Shown here: positions 13,814 to 60,800 of the stretch, in pieces | Position numbering within the stretch: the stretch's first letter is position 1 | How the letters are laid out: each line of letters begins with the position of its first letter | DNA from: Paraspadella gotoi | Taxonomy: Eukaryota; Animalia; Chaetognatha | Direction of reading: 5' to 3' | DNA length: 64,000 nucleotides | Assembly (NCBI GenBank): GCA_051294375.1 | Contig: CM119267.1 | Coordinates: forward strand, 13,755,326-13,819,325 | Notes under the pieces: generated by a model | Database searches by the model: none | The model's input: only the letters and a program-made list of their open reading frames with translations | What the model was told of the DNA's origin: nothing | Program-made: the position numbers and the translations under genes

Positions 13814-14068
13814 TATGGCAACAGACGGGTTGCCTGTGATGCCCATTGGGATGGGGCATCTCACTGTTGGCTTTGGCGGCTTCCGACCCTCAGTGACGCA
13901 TCCAGTCACTGGTGCGGTTACCCTAGGACGGTCTTGCTTTGTCAACGCAGAGGGAAGTCGCTAGGACTGTGGATGGAACACAACGCCGAGGATGGTGTGT
14001 TCCCCTTCTGGGGCAATGGTATTGGCTGAACGATCGTGGATGTGAGGTGGTGTGAATATACCACCACA
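13814..14068 (-). mobile_element. Solo-LTR-like/TRIM element, family A copy 1, with a partly decayed twister (13866-13946)
   Basis: Same TGTGG...CCATA ends; flanks TTAT/ATAT (TSD with one mismatch). Twister core GA CCG..UAA..U CGG AAGC is retained, but T2 GC>AC and P2/P4/P5 carry mismatches. Confidence 0.8.
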
Positions 14069-14753
14069 ATATTTTAATATAATTAATAGTAACGGTGTTC
14101 CGTAATCCTCGAGCAAAAATATTTTTACATTGATGTAAACCTGTAAAGAAACTTTTGACGATGTTAACTGCTTATGTCAATGTTTATTATACTATATACT
14201 ATTATACTATTATACTATATTTATAGTATTATCATGATTGTGCTATTCCTGTTAGATGTAGCCTGAATGTATTTTTATTTCAAGTTTGATTTAATTAAAA
14301 ACTCTTAGTATGATTTTAAAAATATAAATTAATAATAAATAAGCTTTTTGGTGGGCTTCCTTAAGACAGCACTTACCCGGTGGGACTATACCAGCTCGAA
14401 TCTGAACCTCCCGCAGAGAACGCGAGTTGGGTGGGTTTCCCTTGTTTTTCTTGACGAATATAGGAATAGACATTTTCTGCTTAAAAAAAAATATAAAAAT
14501 AAAATAAATAATGGTTTCTTCCCTAAAAGAAGAAAATAGATTATATATCTTTTATAGTTTTTATGTTGTCTCACAAAAAATCAGAATTTTACACCCATCT
14601 TATTCAATATTTAATTATTTAGTATTAGTTGCGCCGCGAGTACTCGCGGAGCAACTCTATAAGTCACTTTTCGGTCGGTCAGTATGTCTGTCCTACTTAC
14701 GTTAAAAATATATATTATTTGCCTATAGTTGGTTGCTCATTTGTTAAGACAGA

Positions 14754-15866
14754 AAACAAATTTGAGCAAACAATGTCGAATCTGCCTACGATAATTAAGC
14801 GGTAATCATCTCTAGCCATCGACGAGGGCGTCGGCGACAGTCTTGGCGGAAATGTCCTTCATGGGGATGGCGATGGGCCATCGAGTAAATCTGACGGCTG
14901 TCAACACGTAATTGAAACCGTTAGACGATGGGAGAGTTACAATGTCGACGTGAATATGATTAAAGCGGCGCTCAGGGAGCTCGAAGGTGCCAATTTCTGG
15001 CATTGTATTTCGCGTTACTTTGGCGCGTTGACATTCGTGGCACTCGCGAGCCCACCGAGAGACCTCGGCGCGCATTGAGGGCCATACGAATTTCTCGCTG
15101 ATTATTTGTCGGGTCCTCTCGACTCCGGGATGGCCAAGGTTGTGGACCGTCTCAAAGACTCGACGGCGCCAGGAGAATGGCACGAATGAGCGCGGAGGAC
15201 TGTTGCTTACGTCGACTGAGATTGACGTTTTTCCAATTGGAATCCGGCGGAAACGGAGGCCGGACGTGGCGTCGGTTGAGATGCGTCGAAACTCGGCGTC
15301 AAGTGGTTGGTCGACGGCCATCTTTTGAAGGTCTACGCCGTGTTGCAGGATCGAGTTTGCCAGTTGATCGAGATTTTGTTGTTTCTCCGCGGGGTCCTCT
15401 TTGTCGATTGTCGCCGAAAAAACATAGGTCGCATTTACTAAAACGTTTTTTTCCATTTAAACTCATTTCCACTCGCGCGATTCCATCGAAACTTTATCTC
15501 AAGCTTATTACCACACTTTGCTACCCAGACACAAAGTTTCATCTCAATCTAATCATCCAATTATGATTAATTATAGTAATTTTGGGTTCAAATTCGGAAA
15601 AAGATTTATGTAAGTGACTTTTTTTTTTCATTTAAACAGATTTCCATTCGAAACTTTATATCAAGCTCAATCACACACTTCCCTACCCACACACAAAATT
15701 TAATTTCAATCCATCAATCCAATCACGAGTAATTTGAGTTTATTGATAAGGGGGAACGGACGGGCGGACAAACAGATGGACAGACATAATTTTTTTGGTA
15801 TAATTTATCAAAATTCGACGTACCGACGGACCGACAAAGTGGATTATAGAGTAAGGATCTGCTGAA
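14754..15866 (-). mobile_element. HINE-like element enclosing the Gypsy integrase fragment
   Basis: HINE end at 14754-14808 and HINE body/other end at 15420-15866 bracket the integrase piece. Confidence 0.6.
14812..15415 (-). pseudogene. Ty3/Gypsy integrase fragment (HHCC zinc finger and start of catalytic core)
   Basis: VHNLGHPGVERT...FVWPSMRAEVSRWARECHECQRAK...RFNHIHVDIV...YVLTAV-RFTRWP; GC-rich island truncated at both ends. Confidence 0.9.
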
Positions 15867-18800
15867 AAGAAGTGTCATCAATCACCTTTGGAAATCACTT
15901 TTTCCCCAATTCCATTTTGAGACTATGATTTTAAGGTCTTGCTATATTTTACTGCCGGAACCAATTCAAATTTTTTTTGCACCAATCGATAGCGCTTTAA
16001 AAGAGCTATACTTTTCAAGTATATTTTTTCATATAAAGCGATTTACAAAAAAATCAATCCCTCAATTTTAAGATTTGCCGTATTGTATTCGTTTTAATTT
16101 AATTCACACTCAAAAAACAAGTTTACGCAAACAAGACAGTCACAGACTGTTAATTGTGCTTTCAATGGCGATCAATACACATTATTCTCTTTCTCTCTCT
16201 CTCTTTTTTTCTCTCTCTCTCCCTCTCATCCCCTTTAATTTCTTCTGAGCTCTTCAACTTCGTAAGAGATAACTGATGTAAAGTCATCCTCTCAGCACCA
16301 AGCGCGATTGCGCAATGCGCATGCCTTCGGCAGAATGTGAGCGCCGATCCGAATACGAATGAAAAATTGAGAATGAGTTCGTGAAATTTCTTTAAGTAGC
16401 CCCTCCAGCATTAACTAAAAAATTGGGCTAACTTTTATATTCGACGACCGGGATTTTGCGGTCGGTAGTTTTTTTTTCGCTTCTTATGAGCGACATATAG
16501 AAATTTCGTTGCGCAAATATAAAAAGAATATTATTGGTAAGGGAAAAAAAAACTTTTTTATGTATATTGGCAAATATTAGCATAAATTTCATAATTCTTT
16601 CGCCTAGAAACCATTTAACCCTAACCACTAGAGTGATGTGAAAATAAAAAAATCAAAATGTAACATATAAAATATAAAAATAAAAACTAATAAAAATCAT
16701 TTAGTAAATTTATTTTTTAATTTTATAGATTAGTAAGCACCAGTGATACATATAAATATATATATATATATATATAAATATATATTTTTAAAATTTTAAG
16801 ATCGGATTTGGATTTTTTGTAAAAAGTTGATATCAGAAATTATAATTCTTTTTAAAAAAATATTTTATTAAGTTGGTCAAAAATATAAAAAAAACTATAT
16901 GCTTTTCGAATAAAACTTTATATTTTTAAAAGATGGTTTATTGAAATTAAATTTGAATCGAAAAGATCTTAAAGATCTTAAAGAAGTAAGTTTGGGTTAA
17001 GGGTAAGTTTGGGTTAGGGGTAAGTTAGAATTAAATTTAAAATTAAGTTTCGGCTTAAGCATACAATAATTTAACTTTTCAAAAAATAATATTTAAATAT
17101 TAATAAATTTATAAAAAAAATATTATAATAATATTTACAAAGAAACAGAGTTTTTATTTATGATTACAATGATCATTTAATAATTCGGAGAGAGAGAGAG
17201 AGATATCAAGGTTAAAATTACCTCTCTTTCTATCTCTCAAAGTTAGTATCCAAATATTTGTTAAAACTATTAAAACTGGCTGATGAAGGTTCAAAAAACA
17301 ATAACCAAAACATATCTGAATTAATAAATGATTGTGGTTATTACAAATAAAAACTGTTATTTTGTAAATATCTATCAAAGGCAATAAAAAAATATTACAA
17401 TTATTAATATTTAAAAAACATTTTTTAAATAATTTTAAAAAAATCCTTAGCTCGTGAAGCTTAAAAACGTTTTTAATATCATAATCATTGTTGTTACAGT
17501 CTTAAATTTTTTTTTCTGTAAAGAAAAGAACTTTATTTTTTCCTCTTCTTTCTCTTCATTTTCCCATAAGCCTCCAGAGCATATTCAAATTATTATTACA
17601 ATAAATTTTTTAAAGATATAAAGTCTATAAAGTATTGCAATTGATAAAATATTAAGAATTCGCAGTAACCAACTTTTATTTTAAATACGACAAGACCGAC
17701 AAAACTTTGTATTAAAAGTTTTTGCACTTTCATAATTTAATCAGGTTTTTAATTAAATTATAATTAGTTCACCGGATATTAAAATATAAATATTACCAAA
17801 ATTTTTTTAAAAGATATTCGCTCATGACGGTTGTTTTCTTCTGGGTTTGCAGCCTCGTCCCCGCTTTCGGTTCTTGTTATTTGATATTTAAAATTATTTA
17901 AAAATATTTTTTTCATTCTAATTTGATTTTTTTCTCTTAATACCCTTTTACTTATTTGTAATGTGGCTATAGAATTATGGTAAAATGCTAATAATTATGA
18001 TTTTTTTTGCCATTACTATAATAACTAAAGTAATTAAAATAAAATATAAGCATATCTCCTTACGAAGATATCCATTTATAATTTTGTTTTTGTTTTAGGA
18101 AAAAACCTCATTTAACAGGTCAGGTAATTAGTTAAAGCAAAAGTGATAAAGTATTTATATTGTTATAAATATATTTTTTATTTAAAAAATTATAATAAAG
18201 ATCAAAAACATTAACCAAAAATTGAAAAAGATTTAAAAAAAAATTTAGTGTAAAAAGTAGAAAAGTATTTTATAAATGTACGAGGTTTTGTTCGAGATAG
18301 CTTTTTAAACAGTGATTTTTAATTTCCAGCTTAAAAATATAATTTTTATAATTCTAACCTATTTATAAAAATCTACTATAAAATTAAATTCAATAGGGGT
18401 GGGGGTTTAAAACTTTAGTCTTGAAGTCTACTTTTAGGTAAAAAATTTTTTTTTTAAAAAGTTCGATTTTAATGCTATTAAAATTACAATATTACTATAT
18501 AATGATCACAATTTTTTTTAATCAATCTTAACTTTTTTTGATGGATTCTGATAGAGCATAAAAAGTTAAATAAAAAATTTAATTACAACTTTCAAAAATA
18601 TTTATATTTTTTTGGTCAAAATTAAGAAAAAATAATAAAATTATCGAAGAATGATGATGATGATGATTATAAATAGTTTTTCATATTTTTCACACACTTA
18701 TGATCAAAATATCAAAAAAGAATTATACTTTGTGTAAACAACTTTTTACAAGCTACCTGAATCTGACCTTAAAAATCAAAAAATCGAAATTTTTAGCCTT

Positions 18801-19404
18801 TCCTATTTATAAATAAATATTAAAAAATTAATATATGGAATATGGAGTAATATTAAACAATTTTGTCTATTCAATTTTTTTAAAAAATGTCTAAATTTTC
18901 GTTTGAGCAGGGGCTTAATTCAAATTTCTTAACCACCTGACTGAATTAGTCTCCCCCTACTATTTAATAACATATCAAGTTATCAAAAGGTTGGAAGTGA
19001 GAAGGACATTGATTTTATAATTTATTCTGACTCTGATTAAAGAAGACAGCTAACCGATTTATATATATAAGTTATAACTGCTGTTTTTGACTTAGTAGCT
19101 GTCAAGAGTTACTATGTTAATATTTCATTGCCGTCTTGTTTTATTTTCGCTTCCCTATTGCAAACAAAAGACTTTTCTTATAATTTTACAAATTAGCTAC
19201 GGTATGTATGAGGACTGAGGAGAATAATAAAAAACATACGTTTAAAAAAATAATTAAATTTACTCATTAACTTAAATTTAAAGTTGAATGCTCATGAAGG
19301 TTTTTGGCTTCGGATTTGATTTATTCGGATCTTTTTCTCTTCGTTTCTTTTTCTTTTTCCCGTCTCTTAATTTTGTTCGCACTTGTCCCAAGATGCTCCT
19401 CTGC

Positions 19405-19445
19405 TGTGATTGGCTCGATGCGGTTCAAATTAAAAGGTGATTGGA
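19405..19445. promoter_or_regulatory. Candidate Ttd14 promoter: tandem inverted CCAAT boxes with a CHR-like element
   Basis: ATTGG at 19409 and 19440 flank GCGGTTCAAA, just upstream of a probable 5'UTR exon ending at the GTAAGT donor at 19584. Confidence 0.4.
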
Positions 19446-19712
19446 GCTCCTAATGTGCGACGTCAACGACTCAAAGAATCAGCAATTTTTTTTCTCCTCA
19501 TTTATTCTCCACAGCTCACATGGCTCGCACGAATACTCTCTCCGTCTTTTTTTCCGCGCGTTCGTTATTTTCTGATTCGATGCGGTAAGTTAATGTTTCC
19601 TTTTCATTCATACTCGTGCCTGGAGTAGGATTATAATTCTCCTATTTTCAATTTTGATAATTTTCATTTTCAGTGGTTGTTCGGAACGGCATTGGTTATT
19701 CAAATCGAAAAT

Positions 19713-22700: not shown

Positions 22701-25700
22701 TTCTCTTATTCCAAATCTGGCATGAACCGTTGATGTTCATGGTCATAAAAATTAAGGTTAACTAGTTTGTTGGTAAAATACGTTTTTCAGGATAAGTAAA
22801 CGTCTATGCAACTATTCAAAATAAAAATATTCGAAAAAAAAGGTTTGACCATTTTCCGCCCCTGTGGGTGACACCCATGGGGGCCCATATCTCGGCTCAG
22901 GGTTCAAATATTGAAATTCGCCTCGATAGTTCTATTTGCATTCCCTTATTGATCATATATACAAAATTTCATTATATTTGTTCCAGTAGTTTTTTCGGAA
23001 CCGATTCTCGGCTCAAAAAACGGCGTATTATTTTCTAATATGAAGGCTTTTGTATTTATAACATAACGACATTGTATTCCTGACAATTTCGGGTTCGAAA
23101 ATTTATCAATTTTTTTAGGCATGGGTCGGTCACCCTTATTTCGACATAGTGGATAATTCTACATCTTTTGAAGCGAAGGTGGTTAGAATGATGAATATTG
23201 TTTGCATGCGAATGGGAATAGACGTTGGTGATCGTCTCATGCGTGAATCGAAAAAGAGAAAGTTTCTCGTTGCCATCATGCCCTCCGATAATGTATGTAT
23301 CATTTTTTAAACATTTAGCCTAAGCAATTAAAGTGATTCTTCGAATTACTCTGTGATTTGATTTCTATTGACAGGTATTCCCTGATTATCAAGACTTCGA
23401 AGTTATTCACGATTATCTATCAACACCTGGTCAAAAAACTCAAGCTCGATTGAGAAAACGTGGACAGCATGGGTCTTACACTTACATGCATACAATCAGA
23501 CGTCACTTGGAAAAGATTGAATCAACCGGCGAGCAGCCTGAACTTAAGCAAGCTATTTCAAGAAGAGATTACATTGTAAGAATAATCTTAAAGTGCGAAT
23601 AAAAATATAGTGAGGTCCCGCTCTTTTGGGACTAAAAACAAGTTTGAGTAAACAATGTCGGATCTAGCCCACGATCATTAGCGGTAATTAATTAATTAAT
23701 TAATTAATTAGGCAAATTATTTATTTATTAATTTGATCCAAAATGTTTGTTTTTAGGTCATTTCGTCATTGACCAGAAACAAAAGCAACGACGATGATGA
23801 TCACGACAATAATGCCGATAATGATTGACTTGATTGATTGATTAAATAATTATTTCATAAATAGATTGATCAAGTTATTAATAGATAAATAAATTGATTG
23901 ATTAAATAAATAATTGATAATTGACTGATTAATTAATTAATTGGGATTAATACATCTTGCATTTACATAATCAATTAGTGAAACAGGTTATTTGTTTTTT
24001 CCATTTAAAGTCATTTCCACTCAGACAATTCGATCGAAACTTTATTTCCAGCTTAATCACACACTTTCTTACCTCATACAAAATTTCAAGTCAATCCCCC
24101 AATCCTCTCATGAGTATTGACTCACGAGTAATTGGCGTTCAAATAGTGAAATATATTTTTTTGTTTTTTCCATTGAAACTCATTTCCACTCGCACGATTC
24201 CGTTAAAACTTCATATCCAGCTCGGTCACCCACTTCCCTACCCACTCACGAAATTTCATTCCAATCCATCCATCCAATCACGAGTAATTTTTTTGCTAAG
24301 GTGGGTTGGACGGACGTACGTACATCTTTTTTTTGGCCTAATTTATCATAATTCGATGTTATGACATGATATAAGTGAATGTTCGACGAGATTGTTGGGG
24401 CGGACCGATGGACCGACATGGATTAGAGTCTGGATCTGCTGATAAGCAGATCCGACTAAAAATTCGTAATGACATCATAATCAATTAAAAAGATTCACCT
24501 TTGGCAACCATGACCATCTCCAAGTGTCCAGAGAAGACGACATATGCTTTGGGGACCGCGTCCATTGGGAATTCTGTCATTTCTGTCACTATTGTTGCTG
24601 TCAGAAAGTTAACAGTTCTAGAGAGGATGTGTGGGGACATTCTGATTTTCATTAATCAGGGGATTGCAGTCAGAAAGATTTGCAAGGCCAAAAGTCATTT
24701 TGATTTTTGTTATAATTTCCTAAAATTTTGTAAGGAAGCGTCGCGAATAATTTTGACATATTGTGGAAAAAGCTTTAATTACTGTATTTACTGTCGGATT
24801 TTCCAGACATTTCTGATATCGATTGAAAGAAAATTGAGCCTATTTTCTAAAAATGGTTTCTTTTTTCTTTTATCATAAACCCTTTTTGTGCTGAAAGCAC
24901 TTGAAGTTATTCCCATTAGAGCTGGACCTCTCTGTAAAATGATCTAATTTTTTTTGTTGGAAAATGATTAAATCTGACGATATATCGCATTGTTGGATTG
25001 TTTAAAAACAAATCATTTCCATTTTTTTATAGATTTTACTGGCGCAAAAGGATCAAAGGAGAAGTAGCATCTACAAAAAAAGAAGATGCTTTACATTCAA
25101 TAATCATTATTACCAATTAGATGTTTATCTTGAACCATGCCCGGCAAGGTAAGAAAAATATATACAGTGAAGAGACAGTAATTATTGATGTGTTAATAAC
25201 AGAACCGTTCAATATAAGCAGTCCCTGAGCTTCGGATCAGGCTGTAACACCGTGTTACAGGCGGGTTAAGCGCCCCGTCCCTCTTAACTGCTAGGCGACC
25301 ACCGGGCTAGAACCCCGGACCTTTGGGTTGGGAGGCGAATGACTTGCCTCCGGCACCATTGGCCGCTGATGAACGGTTGGTGGATTTTAGTCCACCATAA
25401 CAGAAGGCTTCATATTATAAAATGTGGTACCCCTTTTTTGTGACCAGAATCTGTTCCCACCAAACTACCTGATCGAATTTAATGAAATTTTACATTTAGA
25501 GTGCTAATGACTATATAAATGGAACTATCGAGGCGAATTTTGATATTCAGCGGTCAAATATTGAAATTCGCCCCGATAGTTTTATTAGTATTCACATAAG
25601 GGATCGTTCATTCCAAATTTCAATAAATTTGGTCCAGTAGTTTTCTCGGAACGAGTTCTGGTCACCAAAAAGGGATACCACATTTTATAATATGAAGCCT

Positions 25701-28700
25701 TCTGTAAATATATAAAAATATTTTCATTTGATTAACGTTTAGGATTGAAACAATCTTTGAAATATTATACCTTTTCATTGACAGTGAAGCCAAGTACTCT
25801 AGGAGACGAGACTGAGAGATTCTTGATTGAAAGCTTGCAGAGACCTGCTATGTCATTAGCTGTAAGAGTGATGGAGGCCTTAAACCACCATAGCCTGTCC
25901 AAAGTCAGGGGCAAGATAGCTTTTTTATTAAATGATCGGATAATTTTAAATTGGCTGTAACAATTTCATTGAAAAAACTTTTATCATTTTAAATGAAAAT
26001 AAAAATAAACAAGTTTAAACAATGCCGGATCTGCCCACGATCTTAAGCAGCTGATCAGAGAATTAATTAATTAATAGTAATTTTTTAATTTGTGTTTAAT
26101 TTAGTTATCCACTTTGTCTTTCCTCTCAATTAATTTATTTTGTGATCGAGATTGTTTTGTTATTAATTAATTAACATGATTCTACTTATTAAATTCTAAA
26201 TATAAATTATAAATAAATGCAAATTTAATTTGGCTTTTAAAAATGTGGCACTATTATCTATGATCTATATTTTACAGAGGTCTCGCTCTTTTGGGACGAG
26301 TAAATAAAAAAATAATCCAATGAAAATTCGTGCATTTGTAAAAAAAGGTTAGGGTCAGTTACTGTTATGGTTTACTTTTTATTAAAATTAACCATAACAA
26401 TAAAATTATAAAAAAATTATTAACGATATTATCAGATCATTAAGTTAATCATGTAAAATTTCGGAATGCATATTAATAAGGTCAAAATAGTAAGAAAAAT
26501 ATAGTATTAAACGATTTTAGAATATTCGTTAAAATCTTCTTAAATTTTTTTTTATTTACCTAAAAAAATTGAATAAGTTTAATTTGGATAGTGATGAAAA
26601 GCTTAAAATGAGGTCAATTGAAGATAAGACATAACACTTATGTTCAGAAACGACCCTTAAAAATATTAACTAGTGGAGAAGACGAAAATAATAATAATAA
26701 AAGTGAGGAGAAGGTGAAGAATTGTAACGATGTAAGAGAAGTAGAAAAGAAGTGAGACTTGCTCTCTCCTGATCCACTTTTATCAACGCCCGGACCAACT
26801 TGACCTTACGGTCGCCTCGGCCCTATTACTGGGTCTGGTCAATCTAAGGTCATTGCCAAAGCTAGGGCAAAGTGACCGTGTGGATAGACCGGCTCTTAGA
26901 AAGAGGAGAGAGGAAGGGTTTCGAGAGAAAGACCGGTGGTAAGTCGCCTCACTAGTATGGCTTTTATCATATACAATATAATACGCGCGCATAAAAACGA
27001 TTGTTTTGAAAACATCCACGATGTTTTAAAGTTGCTTAAAAAATTTTGTTGTTTCATTGTATATTAAAGTAAAAAGCTAAAACCACAATTGTTTATATCG
27101 ATCGAAAGAAAGTTTAGTATTTAAATATAATCCTTTTTTTCTCTAACATAAACCGTTTTTCTGCTGTAAGTGTAAGCACTTGAAATTAGTCTCATTAGAG
27201 CTGGACCTCCCTGTACTTTACTGTGTTCTTTCATGTTAAGATTTTTTTTAGTTGTCGCGGACTTATTCTGTTGGAGACTTATACCGCTGATGCTTCAGCA
27301 GAGTTTGTGTCCAAGTTACCTTCTTTTCTCAATGTCTTAAGAGAAGTCACTGGAGATCCTCAATATTCCATGTACAATTTGGCTCTTAAAGATGAAGGTA
27401 TTGAGGAATTTGCTTTTCATTATACTAGTTGATGTTATCCGTTATTATTCCGAATTTTCTTTCAGTTCAGGAAATGCGTGATATACGGCGGCGAATCAAG
27501 AGCGAAGGTGGTCCCCAACTAATGAACCAAATAAGGAATGCTCGACTGTCCACTCGTACCACCTCGCTGTCAAGCAACGATGATACTGGCCCTGAGGTTC
27601 GCATTATGATTTTACGTGATATGCTTTTTATTATAAAATGGTCCCATCCTCGCTTAATAAAAGGATCTTGATCGACTAATTGGAACTACACCTGAACAAG
27701 CTGTCGGATCCTCTGCTCCGAATCTTAGCAATGGTACTTCAATACCAGATGAAGATGTTAATTGTAGTAAGTACGAGCTACTTCGACTTTCTCCTTTGTG
27801 GTGGAGGCCAATAAATTTTTTTTTCCGGTTTACGGATGAATCTGTAGAATTATCCGCCCGAATCTCAGGAAGCTAGGGTGAAGTATAATACTTGTAGATT
27901 ACCTATTACTGATATGTGATAAATGTAATATTAAAAACTTAAAATTTATGACAGATGTATCCTGGCACTTGAAAATACAGCCTAATCTCTACGAGTTTTA
28001 CTTTTAGTCTTTTTGTTCAATTTGAATAAAAAACTATTTTTTCTGTTATGGCCTAGGGGGCGAGACTGTTAAATTTTAGTATGTCCTCTCGCTAGAGGCA
28101 GGAAGCGCTTCGCAGCCCTATCTCCAAACGATGGGAGACCCATTCTCTGGCGATCAGCTTCGTTACAAAAACACTATTTCTATTAGTTTGTCATTTACTT
28201 ATTCAGTTATTGTAATAAGAATTCCCTAGGGATACGTTGTTCATTCAAAAGAACCGTTTGTTGACTTATGTCTATAGGTAGTCACTAAGTCAGCTATGGA
28301 AAGATAGAGGGCGATATCATATTTTTTTTCTGATTACAGCTGAGGATGAAACAACGGATCCATTTTGATTATTATTTTGATAACGAAATATGATGCGATA
28401 ATCCTTTCATTTTCGTTGTTTATTGGTATTAGAGAAAGCAAAGAATTTTGAATTTTTAACAACGATTTTTAATTAATAGTTGGACATGTTTCGGCTTGTT
28501 TACTTCAAGCCTCACTTAATCTGCCCTCACCTTCAACCTGTCCTCACATCTGACCACTATTCTGTCTCATCACTTTGTTGGAAAAACTTTTACCCTCTCT
28601 CTCTCTCTCTCACACTCTTCTTTTACACAAAATTTATTATTGAATGTCATATGCTGTTGAAGGCTTGAAGTAAACAAGCCGAAACATGTCCAACTATTAA

Positions 28701-33344: not shown

Positions 33345-33800
33345 TTGAAACATTCTTTGAAATATACCACTTCATTGATAGGGAAGCCAGGTACTCTGGG
33401 AGTGAATAAACGACTGTGAGAGAGTCTTGATTAAAAGCTTGCAGGGACCTGCTATGTCATTATCTTGTAAGAGTGATGGAGGCCTTAAACCACCAAAGCC
33501 TGTCCAAAGTCAGGGGCAAGATAGCTTATTTATTAAATGAATGGATAATTTTTATATTGGTTGTACCAATTTCATAAAATTCAGCTCCTTGTATTTTGAT
33601 GCGAGTGCGGAGTACAATAAGTATTCCCCGATCTAATACTTAAGGGAGTGTTCTTTTCATACAATTGAAACATTCTTTGAAATATTATACCACTTCATTG
33701 ATAGGGAAGCCAGGTACTCTGGGAGTGAATAAACGAGACTGTGAGAGAGTCTTGATTGAAAGCTTGCAGGAGCCTGCTATGTCATTATCTGTAAGAGTGA
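33345..33800. repeat. ~230-bp dispersed repeat of unknown class, here in tandem; also at 25745-25970, 53485-53690 and 61866-61972 (inverted)
   Basis: Shared core GCCTTAAACCACCAAAGCCTGTCCAAAGTCAGGGGCAAGATAGC. Confidence 0.8.
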
Positions 33801-33964
33801 TTGGGGAGTGAATTGAAATTTTGTATGTGGGTAGGATAGTGTGTGATTAAGCTGGAAATCAAGTTTCAATGGAATCGTCTGAGTGGAAATGAGTTTAAAT
33901 GAAAAAAAAAACCTGTTTCACTAATTGATTATGCTTCTTTTTCTTTTTATATTAAAAGATAAGA

Positions 33965-45900: not shown

Positions 45901-48756
45901 CGCTTAATTATTGTAGGCAGATCCGACATTGTTTGCTCAAACTTGTTTTTAATTATTCTATATTTAGTCATATCCTAACTACCAAATATTATTTTGCATT
46001 GATTTTTTTTTCATATATAAAGAAAACCATAATGTTTCATATAACCTATTCAGAGATGACAATTTCAATCACCAATTTTTTTTTATGGCTGCATAGTGCA
46101 TACACTACGCCACGCTAACTGGGAATCGTTGACCCTGGTCCTTGTAACAGAACCTTTGTAATACCTTATGGGTCCATAGTTTATATTATTGGTCAAAGGA
46201 GTTAGCACCGAGATGAACAAATTCATGCAAAAGTAGGGTGAACTCGATTTTAACTTTTATCTGGCAATGCGACTTAAATAGAGGAAAAAAAAAATCGAAA
46301 AAAAGAGGGGAAAAAAATTGTACAATTTCAGGGTTTAATCACTAAAGTGATTTACAATAAATAAGCTATTGAAGAGACAGTAATTATTGTTATGTGTTAG
46401 TGACAGAACCATTCAATATAAGCAGTCCCTGAGCTTCGGATCAGGCTGTAACAACGTGTAACAGGCGGGTTAAGCGGCCCGTCCCTCTAAACTGGTAGGC
46501 GACCACCGGGCTAGAACCCCGGATCTTTGAGTTGGGAGGCGAATGACTTGCCTCCGGCACCAATGGCCGCTGATGAACGGTTGGTGGATTTTAGTCCACC
46601 ATACTATCTTGCCTTCCAGCTTTGGATAATGGACACATTGGACAATAAAAGGATTGGAATGGCTGCAATTAGCTTACTCTTTTAAAAATCGCCTACCGAC
46701 AGCATTGTTCGAGCTTAAGACTGACCATATGAGTATTACATTTGTTTCTTCTTCATACAGATTAATGAAAATGACTATGAGGAAGCCGGAATATTATACG
46801 ACGCCGCCGGGAAGAGGATTGAGTTGAAGAAAATTATACTTCCAAATGCTATGGAAGTAGATTCGCTTTGTAACTTCGTACAAATTCAGATGAATTTTAT
46901 GATAAAATCTGGGGAGGCTTTACTTATTCATCTTGATCGAATGGTAACCAGTTTGAAAATATCAGTTTACTCTTGAAAATTCGCCCAACTTTCCATTTTG
47001 TATTTTTAGGAAGATGATTTACTCAAAGCAAATTTAGACGCATCCTCCGAAAAAACCTTCAACGAATATAGCATTATTTTACAATTTATTCGTAAATTGC
47101 TTTGCGATGCCACCAACACTCGCAAGTCTCAGTATGCCGATACAATTAAAGATTCTCTCAGGAGCGCGGAAGTTCTTTTGATGCAGTCATACTTCAAGCC
47201 TAAATTCAACACTAAGCAAGAAAATGTGCTCAACTATAAACTTTGCACGCGAGCCATCGACGAATTTTTTGATACTTATGGCGAAAATTTCGGCGATCAT
47301 TCTCACGAGATTTGTCTCATCATGCAACAACTTGGACATCCAAAGTACCGCCAGTTTTTGGAAAAACAAATTAGTTTTGGCGAACTGCGTTACCCGGACA
47401 ACACTCTTATTGTAGATCCATATGGTTTTGCGTGCTTCAAGACCATCAATGAGGCGCTCAAATTTGTTCTCAAAGAGGCTATGTTCCTTCTTGTTCGGTC
47501 GCTCTTAAAGATGGAGGAAAACCCGACACGGACTCAATACTCTATTCTTGTCCAACCAGAAACTTATGAAAATGATCTTAAACTTGTCATGCCAAAGAAT
47601 GTGGATATTGACATCGTCGGCAATGTTGGACGCTATGATTATTATGGGTTTAATAAAAATTGCGAAAAACCCCCAGCGGCCGTGGTTCGACTCTCTCGAT
47701 CAAAAATCGAAGGAATGGACCGAAAATCATTAGTAACCATTTTGGAAGGTCGTAATTCTAATCTCAGATTGGCAAGGTAAGGTTTGTTTGCTTTTAGTAT
47801 CTAGATCGAATATTTTTTTTTAAATTTGCCTTTACCCCATCAGGTTAGAGATTTTTGATGTCACGGATCTTAATGACAGCTCTATTTTAATCGATCAAGG
47901 ATCATCAGTGGAAATTAAGGAATGCCTCTTAGTCAGTACTGGAGGGGGCTTTGTAGTCTCGGCTAAAGGATTTAATACAGATTTGAAAATTATTTCCTGC
48001 GCCATTGAGGAAAGCCACAAAGCTTTCAGCATTAATAACAGTGCTAAGCTTTATCTCATGGGCAGTCGATTAGAAAATATTGGAGAGGATGGTTGCATGG
48101 TGAACGAAAGCATTTGTCACATAACTAATTCAAAATTCATCAATGCCAAGAATATTAAGTTTAGCGGTAAATCTCGAGGCATTTTTAACGATTGTAATTT
48201 TCATGGAGAATGGAAAAAAAGTGTAAACACTAGCTTAAAGGGAAGCATCTACAAGTGCTTTTGTCTCGAGGACGCTGCCCGGGTTTCCATACAAAATTGT
48301 ATTGTCTCAGATTACGAAGTGGCAGTTTTCGCCCTCAACCCTGAAAACCATGTGGCTTTGGGCCATACTAAGATTTACCAATGCAAGGTGTGTGCAGAAA
48401 TTTGTGAAAATGCCGGCGCTACTTTGCGGAACAATGAAATCAACTCGGATATCATCCTTGGCGTTTTTGGAAATTCCCAAGGGAAAATTGTACTGGAACA
48501 CAACAAGTCGGTCCAACCTATGGCCATGATTTTGGTAGACGAAAAATCACGGGCCCCGCTTATGATTGGGCCTCAATACGAGGTCATGTCGGTAAAGCTG
48601 GATGATCAACAGATCGAACAAGAAGTTCCCCCACAGCCTGTGAAGGAAGAAGTTCAGACGGAAAATAGTTTAACTTCTACGCTAGACCCTCGGGTATCTC
48701 AGTCAAAAAGAGATAAGAAAAAACGCAAAAAGAAAAAAACCATTGCTCATGAATGA
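39989..48756 (+). CDS. Uncharacterised protein: TPR-like helix followed by a right-handed parallel beta-helix (pectin-lyase-like/PbH1) domain and a basic C-terminal tail; 5' end unresolved
   Basis: Phase-consistent exons 39989-40117 (tentative), 46761-46943, 47010-47776, 47844-48756. The first junction reads IVAEAEKK/INENDYEEAGILYDAA (TPR-like). LIVDPYGFACFKTINEAL...ILVQPETYE resembles a beta-helix N-cap. Periodic I-x-N/D-C repeats in the last exon; KRDKKKRKKKK near the C-terminus. Confidence 0.75.
40875..41300 (-). mobile_element. LTR retrotransposon 3' relic: polypurine tract and start of 3' LTR
   Basis: Minus strand G-run PPT (GGGGGGGGA) directly followed by TGTGTGG at ~41082, then a TATA-like TATATTTAAA and AATAAA. 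Confidence 0.5.
42540..43235 (-). mobile_element. Ty3/Gypsy 5' relic: LTR-like segment, leader and frameshifted gag N-terminus
   Basis: LTDFD..WIRRVEAA..RAG...NKFAHLES resembles the Gypsy gag N-terminal motif (W...VEA.F...GI....KF..L). The LTR-like segment ends ..ACTTCACA at 42988, followed by a degenerate PBS-like TCGGCGAGAGG. Confidence 0.6.
46370..46603 (-). mobile_element. Solo-LTR-like/TRIM element, family B copy 2, twister at 46421-46496
   Basis: TSD CTAT (46366-46369 / 46604-46607). Same TGAAG...CCATA ends as 25168-25399; twister core GA CGG / UAA / GC / U CCG AAGC retained. Confidence 0.87.
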
Positions 48757-48981: not shown

Positions 48982-49120
48982 TCAGGGATGCTGGAGGCGC
49001 TAAATTTCGCCCGCCTCCACTCCCCGCCTCCCGAGATCCCCTCGCCTCCGGTTTTGCGTTCGCCTCTCAATTTTTTAGCCCGGATCGCCTCCGCGTTCGC
49101 CTTTTTAATGCCTCCGGCTT
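48982..49120. mobile_element. hAT-like transposon end with subterminal CGCCTC repeats
   Basis: CAGGGATG start followed by about 8 (C)GCCTC(C)-like motifs, typical of transposase-binding arrays; partner end not found. Confidence 0.45.
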
Positions 49121-51136: not shown

Positions 51137-51640
51137 CTCTCTCTTTTTTTTTTCTCTCCTCTCTCTCTCTCTCTCTTTCTCTCTTTTTTTTCTCTCTTTT
51201 TTTCTCTTCTCTCTCTTTTTTTTCTCTTTCTCTCTCTTTTTTTTCTCTCCTCTCTCTCTCTTTTTTTTTCTCTCTCTCCTCTTTTTTTTTCTCTCTCTCT
51301 CTCTCTTTTTTTTCTCCTCTCTCTCTCTCTTTTTTTCTCTCCTCTCTCTCTCTTTTTCTCTCTCTCTCTCTCTTTTTTCTCTCCTCTCTCTCTTTTTTTC
51401 TCTCTCTCTCTTCTTTTTTTTCTCTCTCTCTTTTTTTCTCTCTCTCTCTTTTTCTCTCTCCTCTCTTTTCTCTCTCTCTCCTCTCTTTTACTCTCTCTCT
51501 CTCTCTTTTTTTCTCTCTCTTCTCTCTTTTTCTCTCTCTTCTTTTTCCTCTCTCTTTCTTCTCTCTCTCTCTCTTTTTTTCTCTCTCTTTTTTTTTCTCT
51601 CTCTCTCTTCTTTTTTTTTCTCTCTCTTCTTCTTTTTTCT
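51137..51640. repeat. Pyrimidine-only (CT/T)n tract within an interspersed repeat also seen at 9100-9420 and 45430-45720
   Basis: About 500 nt almost entirely C/T, flanked by shared GCTGCTGATTCGTCCGA motifs. Confidence 0.9.
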
Positions 51641-51875
51641 CAGGGGCTGCGTCTGCTGATCAGTTTATTTGACAATGAAAAAGTTTTCACTGCTGCTTCT
51701 GCTGATTCGTCCGAAAACTATTAGTTTAAAAACATTAACTGAATAAATAAGAGAACACCGTATGTATATTTTTTTTATCTTACATTAATTAAAATTTTAA
51801 TGTTTTTACTAGTAGGTGATTAATAAATCGCAAACCTCGCCAAAATGCTTTCGGCAAAATAACTTAGATGAAACT

Positions 51876-54800
51876 ATGGAGTTTATACAATACCTAAAAA
51901 GCCCCGAACTTGTCTGTTCCATACAAAACTACTTTGGTCTTTATCGAACAACACATTGCGAATCAACGCCTATAGCCCCAACGCCTGGACTTTCCGGAAC
52001 AAAATTAGAGGCTTACGATGAAGAACCTCACATTCAAAGCCGGAAGAGGGCCGAGAACGCGACTGCTCTGCACGACCGATTGCCCAACGGTGGTCCAGCT
52101 GCTTATATGTCCAACGCCGCTGGAATCGCCGAAAGTCTGCGCAGTTCGGGCTTAGAAGCTCACGGAATATTTTCCGTGCGAGTTGCCACTTCCGCCGGTT
52201 CCTCGTCACGAGCCACACCTTGCAGCAGTAGTGGGGACGAAACCGCGCAGGATGACGGCGACGGTGCTAGTAATAGCTACGTGGCGTCCTCATTTTGGCA
52301 TACTTTATTTGCCGTTGCGTCGAATCTTGGGAATGAAGTTTTTTACTGCTCATTCTTTCCTTTCTGGTTTTGGAACGTCGATACATTCGTCGCGAGACGG
52401 GTAGTCATGCTTTGGGCGCTCAACCTTTATTTCGGACAGGTTCAGTAACTGGGAAAATATTTATAACGGGAACCTAAATGCTAGATAATTTCTTCTTGCT
52501 TTCTCAGGCTTTGAAGGATGTAATACGTTGGCCACGTCCGGCTTCTCCGCCCGTCGTTCGTTTGGAGGATCGTTACGCGCTAGAGTACGGGATGCCGTCC
52601 ACCCACGCCATGGTTGGTGTCGCGATTCCGTTTGGACTTCTCATCACCAGCTTACCTCGTTATAATCTTATATTGTGGCTTAGTCTTTCCATTGCCTTCA
52701 TCTGGACTTCTTCAATATGCCTCAGTAGAATTTATCTTGGTACGATATAGTCAATACCCCTTTATCTCAAGTTTTTAGTTTCTCATACCCCATCTATGTA
52801 AATCATTTCTGTAAATAAATAAATAAATACACTGAAGTTTTTCTTCTTTTCTAACCATTGTCAGTATTATATTGAATCCTTGAATCAGTTAGTGATTTTT
52901 CTTTTCAGGAATGCATTCCGTTTTGGACATTTTGGTTGGCATACTTTTGACGGCGGGCATGATGGCTGCCTATTTGCCTTTTTCTGATTACGTGGATGCC
53001 TTCTTTCTTTGGAACTCCATGTCACCCTTTGTCGTCGCTGGAGCCGCCGTTCTTTCCGCAATATGCTATCCGTCTCTTGATCGATGGTCCACGGCTCGTG
53101 GTGATACCACGACAGTTATGGGCTCTATGTCGGGCGTTCTCATTGGATCTTGGCTAAATTGCCGTCTTGGGTAAAGCGACTTATACGTATTCTTAAGGCC
53201 CGTCTTGTCGTGATGTTGGTTCGCTTCTGCTTTTTTTTTACCGTTGTCGTCAGCGTCACGCTTTCATACCATTGGAAATTGTAAAAGTGTGTAACCATAG
53301 GAAGCTAAAAATTTAGATATAGCTTCTAATAAGCAAGATCTTTTAGATTCACATGTTTCATATTGCTACACGCATTTGTTTGTTTTATTTACAAAACAAT
53401 TATATACAGTCCTGTGCAAAAAAAAACGCGCCACTTTATAATTTTAAATTCCAGACCCTTTATAAAAACATTTTTAAAAATTTTATACCACTTCATTGAC
53501 AGGGAAGCCAGGTACTCTGGGAGTGAATAAACGAGACTGTGAGAGAGAAAGCTTGCAGGGACCTGCTATGTCATTATCTTGGAAGAGTGATGTAGGCCTT
53601 AAACCACCAAAGCCTGTCCAAAGTCAGGGGCAAGATAGCTTATTTATTAAATGAATGGATAATTTTTATATTGGGTGTACCAATTTCATAAAAAATAAAA
53701 TTTATTAAAAAAAGAATTAATGTGATTAAATTTTCTTACAATCGGTCAAGTGGTTTAGAAGATATGATTTTTGAAACTTGAGTATTCCAAAGCCAAACAG
53801 GAAAATCGATATTAGTGAATACTAATCTGTATTTATTTTTTTTTTTTTATAAATCGAATAGCCCAGTCAGCTTATTTTGTAGATGGTACTACCCTTATAT
53901 AATATTAAAATTTCAACAATTTTTTTTTTTAATTCTGAGAACAGATTCAGATTCCTCATTAAAAGTTGATAAAAGTAGCGGTAGCCGACCAAATTCAAAT
54001 TTTAATGGGAACAGCATTAAATTAATCCATTATTGGTATTAATTATTGTATTAAAATATTTTTTTGCAAAAATGTTCCCCAACTATGAATAATTCACTAA
54101 TTAATATTATTATATTGCTATATAATGTCAAAAAATTTTTTTTGATAATTTAAGTTTTTTAAATTGATTCTGATAGAGCTTAAAAAGTTAAGCAAAAAAT
54201 ATAATTACAACTTTTTAAAATTTTAATGTTTTATTACTTAAAATTAGTAAAAACTGCTGAAATCATCTGATGATGATGATGATGATGATTTTTTAAGGTT
54301 TTTCTCAGTTTTGACCCACTTATCATCAAAATATTGAAAAAAGAATTATACTTTGTGTAAACAACTTTTATAAGCTATCTGAATCTGCTTTTAAGAATAC
54401 AAAATTTAAAAAAAATTTTTTGACATTTCCTATCTATAAATAAATATTAAAAAATTAATTATTAATGCTTTTAGCCATTTTAAAAAATTTTGGTCTATTG
54501 AAAGTTTTCTCAGTTTCATTTGGAAAGGTTCCCAAATCAATCTTCTGACCTACCCCATTGACAAAGTTTGGCTCTAATAAAAGAAAATAAAAATCTTTTT
54601 AAAAATTTTTTTTTAAATATATTAAGATTATAAAAATTTATATTTTTAAGCTGGAAATTAAAAATTGGTGTCTTAAATAAAGTTTTTTACATTTTTAACC
54701 AACATAATGAAAGAATTTTTAAAAAAGAATTATATTTTTATATTAACTTTTTGCAAAAAATTTAAATCCGATCTTAAAATTTAAAATTTTGCATTTAGAA

Positions 54801-57800
54801 ATTTTAGTTGTTATATATTTATTATTATATATAAATATAGCTTACTGGTGCCCACTAATGTATAAAATTAAAAATTAAATTTACTAAAATATTTTTTTTT
54901 GTTTTTATTTTCATGTTTTATATGCTAAATTTTAATTTTCTAAATTTTTTTTCATTTTTACATCATTTTATTTGTTATTATTGCATAAATAATCCATTAT
55001 TATTACATTAATACTTAGTTATTGTATCAATCATTCTTTTTATTTTTAATTTTTCATTAATTTTTTTTAATGGTAACATCTGGCGAGATCATTATTCTTT
55101 CAAGATTTTTTTTTCTCTTACTCATATACGCATATTTTATTTACGGCAATGATTATAACCGCATAAATGATTATCATCGCATCAATCATTAGTTATCATT
55201 GTATCAATATTTGGTTATCATCGCATCAATATTTGGTTATCATCGCATCAATATTTGGTTATCATCGCATCAATAATTGGTTATCATCGCATCAATAAAT
55301 TTTTATTGTATCAATCAATTACTATTATATCAATCAATTACTATTGCATCAATTACTATTGTATGGCAACAGCCGGGTTGCCTGTGATGCCCATTGGGAT
55401 GGGGCATCTTACAGTTGGCTTTGGGGGCTTCCGACCCTCAGTGACGCTTCCAGTCACTGGCGCGGTTACCCTAGGACGGTCTCGCTTTGCCAACGCAGAG
55501 GGAAGTCATTAGGTCTGTGGATGGAATACTACATTATACTACACTATGGTGTGTTCCCCCACTGAGCCAATAGATTTGGCTGAAGGATGGTGGACGTGAG
55601 GCGGTTTGAATATACCGCCACAATTGCATCAATCACTAAATCAATTACTATTACATCAATCTATCATTATTCTATCAATAATTCATTATCACATCAATAA
55701 TTCATTTTTTTTTTTCATTTTCTTTAATAGTAACGTCTGGCGAGATCACTATAGATTTACTATACTTTTAAGATTTTTTTTTAGTCACGGCTTTAGATAT
55801 GTTTGTCTGTATGTCGGTCTGTGAATACTGGACATTTAATTAATAAGATTAAAAAGTTTTAAAAAATGTGACATGTTTTCGGAGATGCATTAATTATGAA
55901 AGTGATAAATTTTAGCCTGTCTTATTATTATTAAGGGGTTTTACAATCAAAATTTATAGGTTCCTAAAACCGCCACTTTCTCCACCTCCTTACGAAATCA
56001 TTTATCCTTCATTCCGTGACATGGGCGTCAGCTTACTACGGACCAGCATTGGCGTCCTCATACTTCTTGCAACTCGTGCTGTCGTTAAGCTGGTCGTTTT
56101 TTGGGGCCTCAAGCTTACTTTCACTATAGATGCTAAGTCTAAAGAAGATCTAAAGGTGCGTTAACTGACCATTAAGGCGTAGTGAAAGTTGCAGATCAAA
56201 ATTTGAATAGTTGTTCAATGTTCAGGAACAATCTTGTACTAAAGAATATATATTGATATATAAAAAAACAAGTTTGAGCAAACAATGTCGGATCTGCTTA
56301 TGATAATTAAGCGTTAATAAGCTAATCCGATGATAAATCATGGCACCTTTTCGGACTCTCAATTTGTGATTATAACAAATCATTACAGACTAAATCTATG
56401 AAAAAATTTATAAATCAATTGATCTATCAGTCATTACCAGAAGCTGTGCCAATACTAACTTGCATAATTTGGTCAACAGGCATAATTTGGTGAATTGGTA
56501 TAATATGGTCAACTGATGTAATTTTGTCAGGTGACGTAATTTTGTTAAGTGACGTAATTTTGTCAACTGGCATGAATTGGTCAACTGGCATGAATTGGTC
56601 ANNNNNNNNNNNNNNNNNNNNNNNNNNNNNNNNNNNNNNNNNNNNNNNNNNNNNNNNNNNNNNNNNNNNNNNNNNNNNNNNNNNNNNNNNNNNNNNNNNN
56701 NNNNNNNNNNNNNNNNNNNNNNNNNNNNNNNNNNNNNNNNNNNNNNNNNNNNNNNNNNNNNNNNNNNNNNNNNNNNNNNNNNNNNNNNNNNTTGATCAAC
56801 TGGCATAATTTGGTCAACTGGCATAATTTGGCAACCGGCATAAATCGATCAACTTCCATAATTTAATCAACTTCCATAATTTAATCAACCTTCCAATGAT
56901 TTAATCAATTCCATGATTTAATCAACTTCCATGATTTAGTCAACATCGGCATGAATTTAACATCAACTTCCATGTTTAATCAATCTCCATATTAATCACC
57001 CTAATACAACCATGTCACCCAATTATTTAATCAACTTCCATATTAATCAACTCCATATAATCAAACTTCCATGATTTAATCAACTTCCATGATTTAATCA
57101 ACTTCATGATTTAACAAAAACTTTCCCATGATCTTTAATCAACTTCCATGATTTAATCAACTTCCATGATTTAATCAACTTCCATGATTTAATCAACTTC
57201 CATGATTTAATCAACTTCCATGATTTAATCAACTTCATATTTTAATCAACTTCCATGATTTAATCAACTTCCATGATTTAATCAACTTCCATGATTTAAT
57301 CAACTTCCATGATTTAATCAACTTCATTGATATTTAATCAACTTCCATGATTTAATCAACTTCCATTTATTTAATCAACTTCCATGATTTAATCAACTTC
57401 CATGATTTAATCAACATCGCATGATTTAATCAACTTCCATGATTTAATCAACTTCCATATTTAATCAACTTCCATGATTTAATCAACTTCCATGATTTAA
57501 TCAACTTCCATGATTTAATCAACTTCCTTGATTTAATCAACTTCCATGATTTAATCAACTTCCATGATTTAATCAACTTCCATGATTTAATCAACTTCCA
57601 TGATTTAATCAACTTCCATATTAATCAAACTTCCATTGATTTAATCAACTTCCATGATTTAATCAACTTCCATGATTTAATCAACTTCCATGATTTAACA
57701 ACTTCCATGATTAATCAATTCATGAATTTAATCAACTTCCATGATTTAATCAACTTCCATGATTTAATCAACTTCCCATGATTTAATCAACTTCCATGAT

Positions 57801-60800
57801 TAATCAACTTCCATGATTTAATCAACTTCCCATGATTTAATCAACTTCCATGATTTAATCAACTTCATGATTTTAATCAACTTCCATGATTTAATCACTC
57901 ATGATTTAATCAACTTCCATGATTTAATCAACTTTCCATGATTAATCAACTTCCATGATTTAATCAACTTCCATGATTTAATCAACTTCCATGATTTAAT
58001 CAACTTCCATGATTTAATCAACTTCCATGATTTAATCAACTTCCATGATTTAATCAACTTCCATGATTAATCAACTTCCATGATTTAATCAACTTCATGA
58101 TTTAATCAACTTCCATGATTTAATCAACTTCCATGATTTAATCAACTCCATGATTTAATCAACTTCCATGATTAATCAACTTCCATATTTAATCAATTCC
58201 TATGATTTAATCAACTTCCATGATTAATCAACTTCCATGATTTAATCAACTTCCATGATTTAATCAACTTCCATGATTTATCAACTTCCATGATTTAATC
58301 AACTTCCATGATTTAATCAACTTCCATGAAATTTAATCAACTTACATGATTTTCATTCATGATTAACAACTTCCATGATTTAATACCCGCATGATTTAAT
58401 CAACTTCCATGATTTAATCAACTTCCATGTTTAATCAACTTCCATGATTTTCAACTTATAATTTGGGTCAACTGGCATATTTTTTCAACTTGTATAATTT
58501 GGTCAACTTTGTAAATTTGTCAACTTGCTATAATTTGGTCAACTGGCATAATTTGGTCAATTAATCAATCACTCAGAGAGAGATAGAGAGAAACTTTTTA
58601 AAAATTGACATAAATGTGTCTTTTGGTTTTCTGTTTAAACTCTTTTCCACTCCTATGATTCCATCAAAAAACTTATATCAGCTTAATCACATAGTTTCCT
58701 ACCCACACACAAAATTTCATTTCAATTTATCTATCCAATTTTTAATCAATATAATAATTATGAGTAAATATAAGTTAAAATGCTTCAAGTAAATATGACT
58801 TCTGTTTTTTTCCATTTAAATCATTTCCATTTCCAATCATTAGTGGTAATTAATTAATAAATTAATTAATTTAATCCAAAAAGTTTGTTTTTAGATCTTT
58901 TCGTCACTTACCATGACAAAAGCAATGAGGACGATGATGGCGACGACGAAAATAATGCCGATAACGATTGACTTGATTGATTGATTAAATAATTAATTGA
59001 TAAATTGATTGATTGAATAATTAATAGATCAATTAATTATTAATTGACTGAATAATTAATTATTGATTAATTAACTAATTGATTAATTAAATCATTTATT
59101 ATTTGATTAATTTTTACATCTTGCATTTACATTTAATATAAAATAAAAAGTGAAACAGGTTTTTTTCTTTTTCCATTTAAACTCATTTCCACTCAGACGA
59201 TTCCATCGAAACTTTATTTCCAGCTTAATCGCATACTTTCCTACCCACATACAAAATTTCAAGTCAATCGTCCTGTAGTCGGGCATTGCCTAGGTTCACC
59301 CCGCCAAGAATCATGACACTTTCAGTTGTGACCCGGTGGCTCATTGAGTAAAGCCATCAGCTCATGACCACTAGGTACCGGGTTCAATCCCAACCCGGTA
59401 CCTACCCTGCGGGAAGCGTGAGGACGGTCATAAGCCGCCTTGGGGGCATGGCAAACCCTCAAGCCTGGTTCCAAGCCCAGGGACCCGTTCCATGGCTGCT
59501 AGAGGGGGTTATAGAAGTTACGGACAGTCATCTTCAGCCCACGTAGCGCCTTATCCACAGTCCCATCCATTGGCGTTCAAATAGTGAAATATATTTTTTT
59601 GTTTTTTCCTTTATTCTTTTCCACTCGTACGATTCCATCAAAACTTCATATCTAGCTTAATCACACACTTCCCTAGCCACACACATCCATCCATCCAATC
59701 ACGAGTAATTGGAGTTTTTTGGCTAAAGATGGGACGGACGCGATGGACATCGTTTTTTTTTTTTTTGCATAATTTATCATAATTCGATATTCTGACATGA
59801 TATATAATGAATTACCGCGACGCCGCCTGCCCCGTCCGCCGCTCCCCACTAGCCTTCCACTCCCGCGCTCCGCCCCGCCCCCCCGCCGGCCTCCGCCGAC
59901 CCGACCCCACCGCGCCCGCGCCGCCGCCCCGCGCCCTCCACCCCCACCCTCGCCACCGCCCACCACCCACCCCATCCGCCGCATCCGTCCACCCCACCAC
60001 CACCCTCCCACCACCGCCCGCCCCCCCCGCCCCCGCCCCTCCCCACACCCCCCCCCCCGCCGCCCCGCCCCCCCTCCGCGACCACCCCCCCCGCCCGCCC
60101 CCCCGCCTCCCGCCCGCCCAAGATTGAGGGGGCGGGCCGACAAGTGAATTGAGGAATCTGCTTTATAAGCATTCCGACTAAATATTTTTAATTTTTCGGA
60201 TACGCCCATATTTATGCATATTACTTAACATAGAAAAAGTCAATTTTTTTAAAAAGTTGCTAAAAGAAAAAACAAATTTTAATCAAAAATTTCATTAAGT
60301 GAGCTAAAAATTAAACTATTTTTTATACTAAAATTAAATTATAAGTTAACTATAACAGTTTTTGAGGATTTTGACCAACTTAACAGGAAATATAATTCTT
60401 TTAAAAAACTTATTTCATTATAAATTTTTTGTAAGGAATTCAAATCTGCTTTTAAAAATAAGGGGAAAAAATTTAAAATTTTAACATTTTTTATGGTGAC
60501 TATTATTGGTGAGTATTATCTATATATATCTATCTATATATATATATCTATAAATATTAAATATGGGCGTATTTATTTAAAAATGTTCTCAGGTAAAAGA
60601 CTGTTCATGATCTACTATTCGAATTTTGATTCAACTTGATTTTAATATTTTTGCTACGCTTTACTGATCATAATTATTACTATTTGGCGTTATATTCTTT
60701 TATAATAATTTCTTTAGGTCGAATTTCCCTACAAGTTTTTGCCATACGCAGCTATGGGCTTTATCGCCATATTTTTTTGTCCAATCGCATTTGAAATTTT

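Follow-up and report, generated by a model that had tools for sequence, protein, structure and literature searches.

The question raised by a 64,000-nucleotide stretch of the chaetognath Paraspadella gotoi (GenBank assembly GCA_051294375.1, contig CM119267.1, positions 13,755,326 to 13,819,325 of the forward strand; hereafter the window) is what five short dispersed elements within it are, and how they move. A first-pass annotation had assigned them to three families, A, B and C, and had read them as solo long terminal repeats (LTRs) of non-autonomous retroelements that each encode a permuted twister ribozyme. On balance we lean towards a related answer, namely that the five elements are solo LTRs of Helenus-like miniature retrotransposons with terminal repeats (TRIMs) transcribed by RNA polymerase III (Pol III), in which a tRNA-like head is followed by a twister predicted to cleave itself as a dimer.

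The window is repeat-rich animal DNA of 32% GC in which kinase and PAP2-family exons are present. The boundaries first assigned to the five elements were borne out. Family A comprises A1 (13814..14068), a degenerate copy, and A2 (55362..55622); family B comprises B1 (25168..25399) and B2 (46370..46603); family C is represented by C1 (59274..59559). Families A and B lie on the minus strand and C on the plus strand. The elements are 232-286 bp long with a GC content of 51-56%. Identity is 85% between A1 and A2 and 94% between B1 and B2, and global identity between families is 50-61% (z of 1.0-5.1 against shuffled sequences, highest for B1 and C1). The 4-bp target site duplication (TSD) reported for the elements is exact, and exactly 4 bp long, around A2 (ATTG), B1 (ACAG), B2 (CTAT) and C1 (GTCC), but that of A1 (TTAT/ATAT) contains one mismatch. 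Similarly, the TG..CA/TA termini were confirmed for families A (TG..TA) and C (TG..CA) but not for B, which starts with TA on its sense strand (TA..CA); both TA starts and TA ends are found among published Helenus LTRs (PMC10886601).

Because three of the insertions fall inside other repeats, they could be compared with empty sites. C1 lies within a repeated host element (12 window copies matched), B2 in sequence resembling a further repeat family, D (four copies), and B1 in the end of an inverted repeat resembling a miniature inverted-repeat transposable element (MITE; two other ends). In each of these hosts the TSD 4-mer is present once, which gives empty sites for three of the five insertions. 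The empty sites, the 4-bp TSDs and the sharp, fixed termini support insertion by an integrase, as had been suggested. The MITE-like host, with long terminal inverted repeats, spans 25400-25710 and holds B1 within one end; the flanks of B2 (46356-46369 and 46608-46640) match the 3' part of D.

Contigs of public sequencing runs from the same organism were aligned to the B and C regions. In all four runs, loose contig ends whose flanks are unrelated accumulate at both termini of B1, with 64, 21, 51 and 27 contigs per run at 25168 and 124, 26, 108 and 70 at 25399 (25399/25400). At the 5' end of C, 72 contigs start at 59274 with unrelated flanks (run X4; agreement 0.39). In run X4 the B region collected 17,192 contigs with a summed depth of ~4.5 million, compared with ~300 on unique flank, a ratio which is not a copy number. 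The depth over B1 falls across its last 30 bp; since the same terminus is found on loose ends at 25188, this drop was attributed to clipping at a 2-bp length difference. Families B and C are highly repeated and sharp-ended, B at both ends and C at its 5' end. Insertion in the manner of a short interspersed nuclear element (SINE) was considered and rejected on the basis of the missing 3' tail, the constant 4-bp TSD and the fixed 3' end of B. The first-pass annotation had named variable TSDs and SINE-like 3' tails in other copies as signs that would speak against its proposal; the ends were found to be sharp and no tail was seen. Families A-C show neither hallmark of tRNA-derived SINEs or of the Sm-alpha elements of Schistosoma, namely a 3' tail with variable TSDs, or tandem arrays.

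The 5' portion of the elements resembles a tRNA gene. In C1 the tRNA-like head (59330..59403, plus strand) contains an A box (59337-59348) and a B box (59381-59391) that both match. The B1 head (25294..25366, minus strand) deviates at one position per box (A box 25358-25348, B box 25314-25304); its fold includes an acceptor-like stem of 7 bp and a hairpin that resembles a T arm. The boxes of family A are degenerate, as the first-pass annotation had noted: on the minus strand A2 has an intact A box (55569-55559) and a poor B box near 55527-55519, while A1 has one mismatch per box. A 5' terminal hairpin, described for all three families, is evident in families A and B, whereas the minimum free energy (MFE) fold of C does not contain it. 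No tRNAs were called by ARAGORN. The head is likely to serve as a Pol III promoter. All five copies are devoid of a run of four thymines (T4) on the sense strand, which alone is not improbable at such length and GC content.

The head is followed by a twister fold. A descriptor composed of GA-NNN, UAA, U-NNN-AAGY, complementary strands for the pseudoknots T1 and T2 and a P4 of at least 3 bp, with P1 and P2 left free, was run on both strands. Seven matches were obtained in the window (A2, B1, B2, C1 and three copies of family D), compared with 0.43 on average over 30 block shuffles; shuffles of single elements at their own composition gave 4-9 matches per 20,000. The type-P5 twister folds span 55414..55494 in A2 (minus strand, cut predicted at 55468/55467), 25217..25292 in B1 (minus strand, 25268/25267) and 59410..59487 in C1 (plus strand, 59431/59432), and the core of B2 spans 46421-46496. 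A1 retains a twister-like core (13866..13946, minus strand, cut predicted between 13920 and 13919) with T2 and two P2 pairs broken. The conserved nucleotides of L1 (UAA, GA) and L4 (U-NNN-AAGY) are present in all nine copies of families A-D, and T1 (3 bp) and T2 (2 bp) are both intact in seven of the nine. Across the four families T1 is made of four different triplets and T2 of two types; P4 is 3-5 bp long (1 bp in A1) and P5 at least 4 bp, with a sequence that differs per family. The order of these elements and the position of the open ends match type P5 (PMC5408937).

The helices of A2, B1, C1 and D2, a copy of family D, were then tabulated on anchors placed by script, MAFFT having misaligned A against the other families. 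Pairing holds in 71 of 72 cells of the resulting table, and 15 of 18 positions show a two-sided change. Since T1, T2 and P4 had been required by the descriptor, the bounds of P5 set by eye and the C linker entered with its majority letters, the rows are not all independent, and the informative part of the table is the diversity of the paired sequences. The pairing of GA-NNN with U-NNN-AAGC and its covariation, on which the first-pass annotation had staked its proposal, hold across the four families. Within family B, variation in the core consists of CpG-type changes (up to 13% of depth) and two positions in or beside the P3 loop.

The P5-permuted layout that had been proposed was thus retained in its order, core, P4 and pseudoknots; it had to be revised for P1, which forms no helix within a monomer, and for P2, which is non-canonical in B, C and D. 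P1 is replaced by a palindromic linker of 6 nt (B, C and D) or 8 nt (A) that cannot form a hairpin and whose homoduplex was calculated at -8.3 to -11.0 kcal/mol. The palindromes differ among the four families, though the descriptor had left P1 free; at their centre, where a remnant hairpin would have its loop, the dinucleotide is self-complementary in all four (a chance of ~1 in 256 if independent). In family C the two letters that make the palindrome perfect occur in ~99% of depth in three runs, C1 being a damaged copy; in family B the linker of B1 is the majority form and that of B2, a damaged palindrome, is a private variant. Such palindromes point to cleavage as a dimer. In B, C and D, P2 has 3 bp and a single bulged nucleotide, the identity of which is variable within family C; in A2 P2 is 4 nt long, with 3 bp and one C.A mismatch. 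A P2 of four base pairs was not found.

Family D, a fourth twister family absent from the first-pass annotation, is an AT-richer repeat with the best Rfam scores of the set. Its twister variant combines a palindromic linker, a bulged P2 and an A-U pair in T2, with no P3. Three copies lie on the plus strand: D1 (approximately 25746..25969, core 25858-25916, no B box), D2 (approximately 33347..33574, core 33463-33521, with a second partial copy at ~33655-33801) and D3 (53466..53693, T1 mismatched). The fourth, D4 (61863..61972, minus strand), is 5'-truncated just upstream of the core. The start and end of D have a short sequence in common and two copies lie ~90 bp apart, an arrangement which suggests a tandem or permuted twister element of non-LTR type.

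Based on the layout of families A-C, we propose the following cycle. Transcription of a two-LTR copy by Pol III would begin at the head in the 5' LTR and, as none of the five LTR copies has a T4 terminator, would continue across the internal region and on into the 3' LTR. The palindromic P1 linkers of both LTRs would pair and both twisters would cut at the U/A site, so that a unit-length RNA made of the internal region and one LTR equivalent would be released with a 5'-OH and a 2',3'-cyclic phosphate. This RNA would probably be circularised by an RtcB-type ligase, RtcB ligation having been shown for animal hammerhead retrozymes (PMC7229834), and would be copied and inserted with 4-bp TSDs by a Gypsy-type reverse transcriptase and integrase. 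A circular template, as modelled for plant retrozymes (PMC4918200), would solve strand transfer because a unit-length RNA has no terminal redundancy. Since ligation would restore an intact LTR sequence, the circle junction would be unrecognisable at the U/A site. Solo copies would arise by LTR-LTR recombination or from short complementary DNAs, and their transcripts would be cut once, ~100-110 nt past the head. The unit-length circles envisaged by the first-pass annotation could not come from the solo copies of the window, each of which has a single cut site.

Several observations weigh against this reading. Neither a two-LTR copy nor a primer-binding site (PBS) or polypurine tract (PPT) adjoins any of the five copies in the window, and an LTR end joined to an LTR start was not seen among the contig joints listed (15 of 193 for C and 15 of 86 for B). 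The contig evidence covers families B and C, not A. When the Rfam twister models were run, as had been recommended, no copy reached the gathering score: with Twister-P5 (gathering 37.6 bits) C1 scored 15.5 bits and D 24.9-25.8 bits, with twister-P1 (gathering 67.2 bits) A2 scored 19.3 bits, and B1 gave no match. No hammerhead was matched in the Rfam scans either. MFE folds of B and C recover P5 and P4, not the full twister (z of -2.3 to +0.2). Dimer formation may be unnecessary, because P1 is dispensable in a mini-twister (PMC5408937). According to the same review, the active site might be disturbed by a change in P2 length, and the G-C pair of P4 next to L4 is essentially invariant (PMC5408937); P2 is the bulged 3-bp form in B, C and D, and B has an A-U pair at the invariant position. 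Lastly, family D carries its twister with neither a B box nor clear LTR ends. On the other side, in a large assay of natural twisters, imperfections in P1, P2 and P4 were tolerated and pseudoknot mismatches were harmful (PMC11662667), from which A1 and D3 are likely to be weak or dead and B1, A2, D1 and D2 are plausible ribozymes.

The alternative that survives best, although we judge it improbable, is that the elements are LTRs of TRIMs whose twister is active in monomeric form and does no more than trim or terminate the Pol III transcripts, without a circular intermediate. The cut would then either stand in for a T-run terminator or free a ~100-nt tRNA-like RNA. Such a role would agree with the dispensability of P1 in vitro (PMC11662667, PMC5408937), with LTRs of A, B and C that are free of T4 runs and with the twister T-variants of Schistosoma, by which linear retrotransposon RNA is processed at its 5' end (PMC8501958). 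However, an idle P1 would leave unexplained why four distinct linkers are palindromic, central dinucleotide included. From the published LTR mechanism (PMC10886601) we also infer that an RNA cut at one and the same position of its two LTRs would lack the terminal redundancy needed for strand transfer unless it was circular.

Less probable again is the view that the ~250-bp unit is the whole mobile element, a Pol III-made ribozyme RNA similar to Sm-alpha, whose tandem or circular monomers would be the template for copying and insertion, with no separate internal region. Only solo units occur in the window, PBS and PPT were seen neither there nor among the contig joints listed, and family D appears to be tandem or permuted; SINE-like repeats of Schistosoma, too, have a hammerhead downstream of a Pol III promoter (PMC6765202). 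Nevertheless, fixed ends, constant 4-bp TSDs and the absence of tails agree with the processing of LTR ends by an integrase rather than with target-primed insertion. Metazoan non-LTR retrozymes are tandem, with less than 50% GC and larger TSDs (PMC7229834), whereas A-C are dispersed and GC-richer than that.

We consider it unlikely that the families spread as ordinary TRIMs in which the twister fold, inherited from an ancestral element, survives as an inactive or neutral relic. The sub-threshold Rfam scores and non-canonical P2 would fit such decay, as would the damage to a pseudoknot or palindrome in three of the five window copies of A-C (T2 in A1, the palindromes in B2 and C1). A neutral relic is difficult to reconcile, however, with two-sided changes at most helix positions between families of 50-61% identity, or with family majorities that hold the core intact while the loops vary. 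A MITE origin, in which a non-autonomous DNA transposon with 4-bp TSDs took up a tRNA-like and twister-like segment, is very improbable, for although cut-and-paste elements also show fixed termini and a constant TSD length, the terminal inverted repeats of A-C are imperfect and only 2-5 bp long, and the strand-specific order of promoter then ribozyme in three families implies an RNA stage.

The assignment of A-C to solo LTRs of Helenus-like TRIMs can be set against known systems. Helenus TRIMs, also TRIMp3, are alike in that a short LTR contains tRNA-like A and B boxes and has ends of the TG..CA type or TA variants of it, animal copies have 4-bp TSDs, solo LTRs are common and a Gypsy helper has been proposed (PMC10886601). 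Families A-C share the boxes to differing degrees (both in C, each with one mismatch in B, degenerate in A) as well as the 4-bp TSDs and fixed ends. Unlike A-C, most of the animal Helenus LTRs inspected by eye have the head close to the 3' end and a short tail, and none of those inspected showed a twister (PMC10886601). By eye, the LTRs of Helenus-2_SyJa and Helenus-2_SyUm, from gall wasps, are laid out as in A-C, with a 5' hairpin, a tRNA-like head and a hammerhead in the place of the twister, and have no T4 run; the B box is followed by a GUC site, stem I, CUGAUGA, stem II, GAAAC and complementary loops (PMC10886601, DataS1). With a hammerhead after the head, these two elements would be animal LTR retrozymes. 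The motif that follows their B box corresponds to a type III hammerhead core. In the main text of PMC10886601, ribozymes appear in one reference only, and this hammerhead goes unremarked.

Plant LTR retrozymes likewise are non-coding, have a ribozyme within their LTRs, show TSDs of 4 bp and occur as solo LTRs, and they have circular intermediates and Gypsy machinery of the kind proposed here (PMC4918200, PMC7761336). They differ in having a type III hammerhead and LTRs of ~330-350 bp, and a tRNA-like promoter is not reported in the relevant passages of these papers. Families A-C, by comparison, have a twister, an animal host and a tRNA-like head, and no type III hammerhead. With the type-P5 twister (RF02684, clan CL00120), families A-D share GA-NNN, UAA, U-NNN-AAGY, both pseudoknots, P4 and termini in P5 (PMC5408937); they depart from it in the palindromic linker at P1, the bulged P2 (B, C and D) and scores below gathering, and their activity is predicted.

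For the dimer mode the closest parallel is found in the minimal hammerheads of Penelope-like elements, in which a stunted stem has a palindromic loop that pairs tandem copies for dimer cleavage; these are hammerheads in the pseudo-LTRs of non-LTR-type elements (PMC6765202). Sm-alpha shares the order of Pol III promoter then ribozyme and differs in being tandem with a hammerhead (PMC6765202). Twisters in animal retroelements have been reported for RTE long interspersed nuclear elements (PMC8501958, PMC7761336). The Perere-3 T-variants among them similarly lie within an animal retroelement, but are open at P1 and located at the 5' end of an element that inserts by target priming (PMC8501958). 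The metazoan non-LTR retrozyme, which is tandem, low in GC and has a type I hammerhead and larger TSDs (PMC7229834), differs from A-C in each of these respects.

Further features of the window were recorded. A retroelement fragment with an Integrase_H2C2 domain lies at 14815-15456 (minus strand), ~750 bp from A1. A near-perfect hairpin at 6805-6882 gave weak microRNA-family scores (~36 bits, far under threshold), an 18-bp satellite array at 56400-58600 contains an assembly gap of 190 N, and two long open reading frames of 256 and 310 aa at 47010-48756 (plus strand) have no Pfam match.

Literature searches, which had subscription journals and Repbase reports outside their scope, found no twister in an LTR or TRIM and no dimer twister. 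LTR retrozymes are still presented as mainly a plant group in a 2026 preprint, whose relevant passages make no mention of twisters (10.64898/2026.07.22.740005). Pattern scans of viral contigs and prokaryote genomes gave no matches. Pattern matches in metagenomes were dismissed as chance, all 28 being without P4 pairing by eye and 21 having one common flank.

The structure appears to be real and well supported, and the mechanism is put forward as a model. More tentatively, families A-C may represent an animal lineage of LTR retrozymes with many families, its own Pol III promoter and a twister that acts, through its palindromic P1, as a dimer between molecules or between LTRs; taken with the gall-wasp Helenus-2 elements, this lineage may indicate that an interchangeable ribozyme module has repeatedly replaced the terminator of Pol III TRIMs that move via small circular RNAs. 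LTR retrozymes have been described as primarily plant, with type III hammerheads, and animal retrozymes as non-LTR; we found a cycle of dimers cut to unit length described only for plant elements with another ribozyme. If the proposal is correct, the twister, for which most genomic examples have no known role, would gain one in the cycle of an LTR retroelement, and this would be the first dimer-dependent twister found in the literature searched. An abundant circular RNA made by Pol III would be predicted in an animal. The proposal would also account for standard Rfam scans missing such ribozymes, and animal repeat libraries may for that reason hide more of them.

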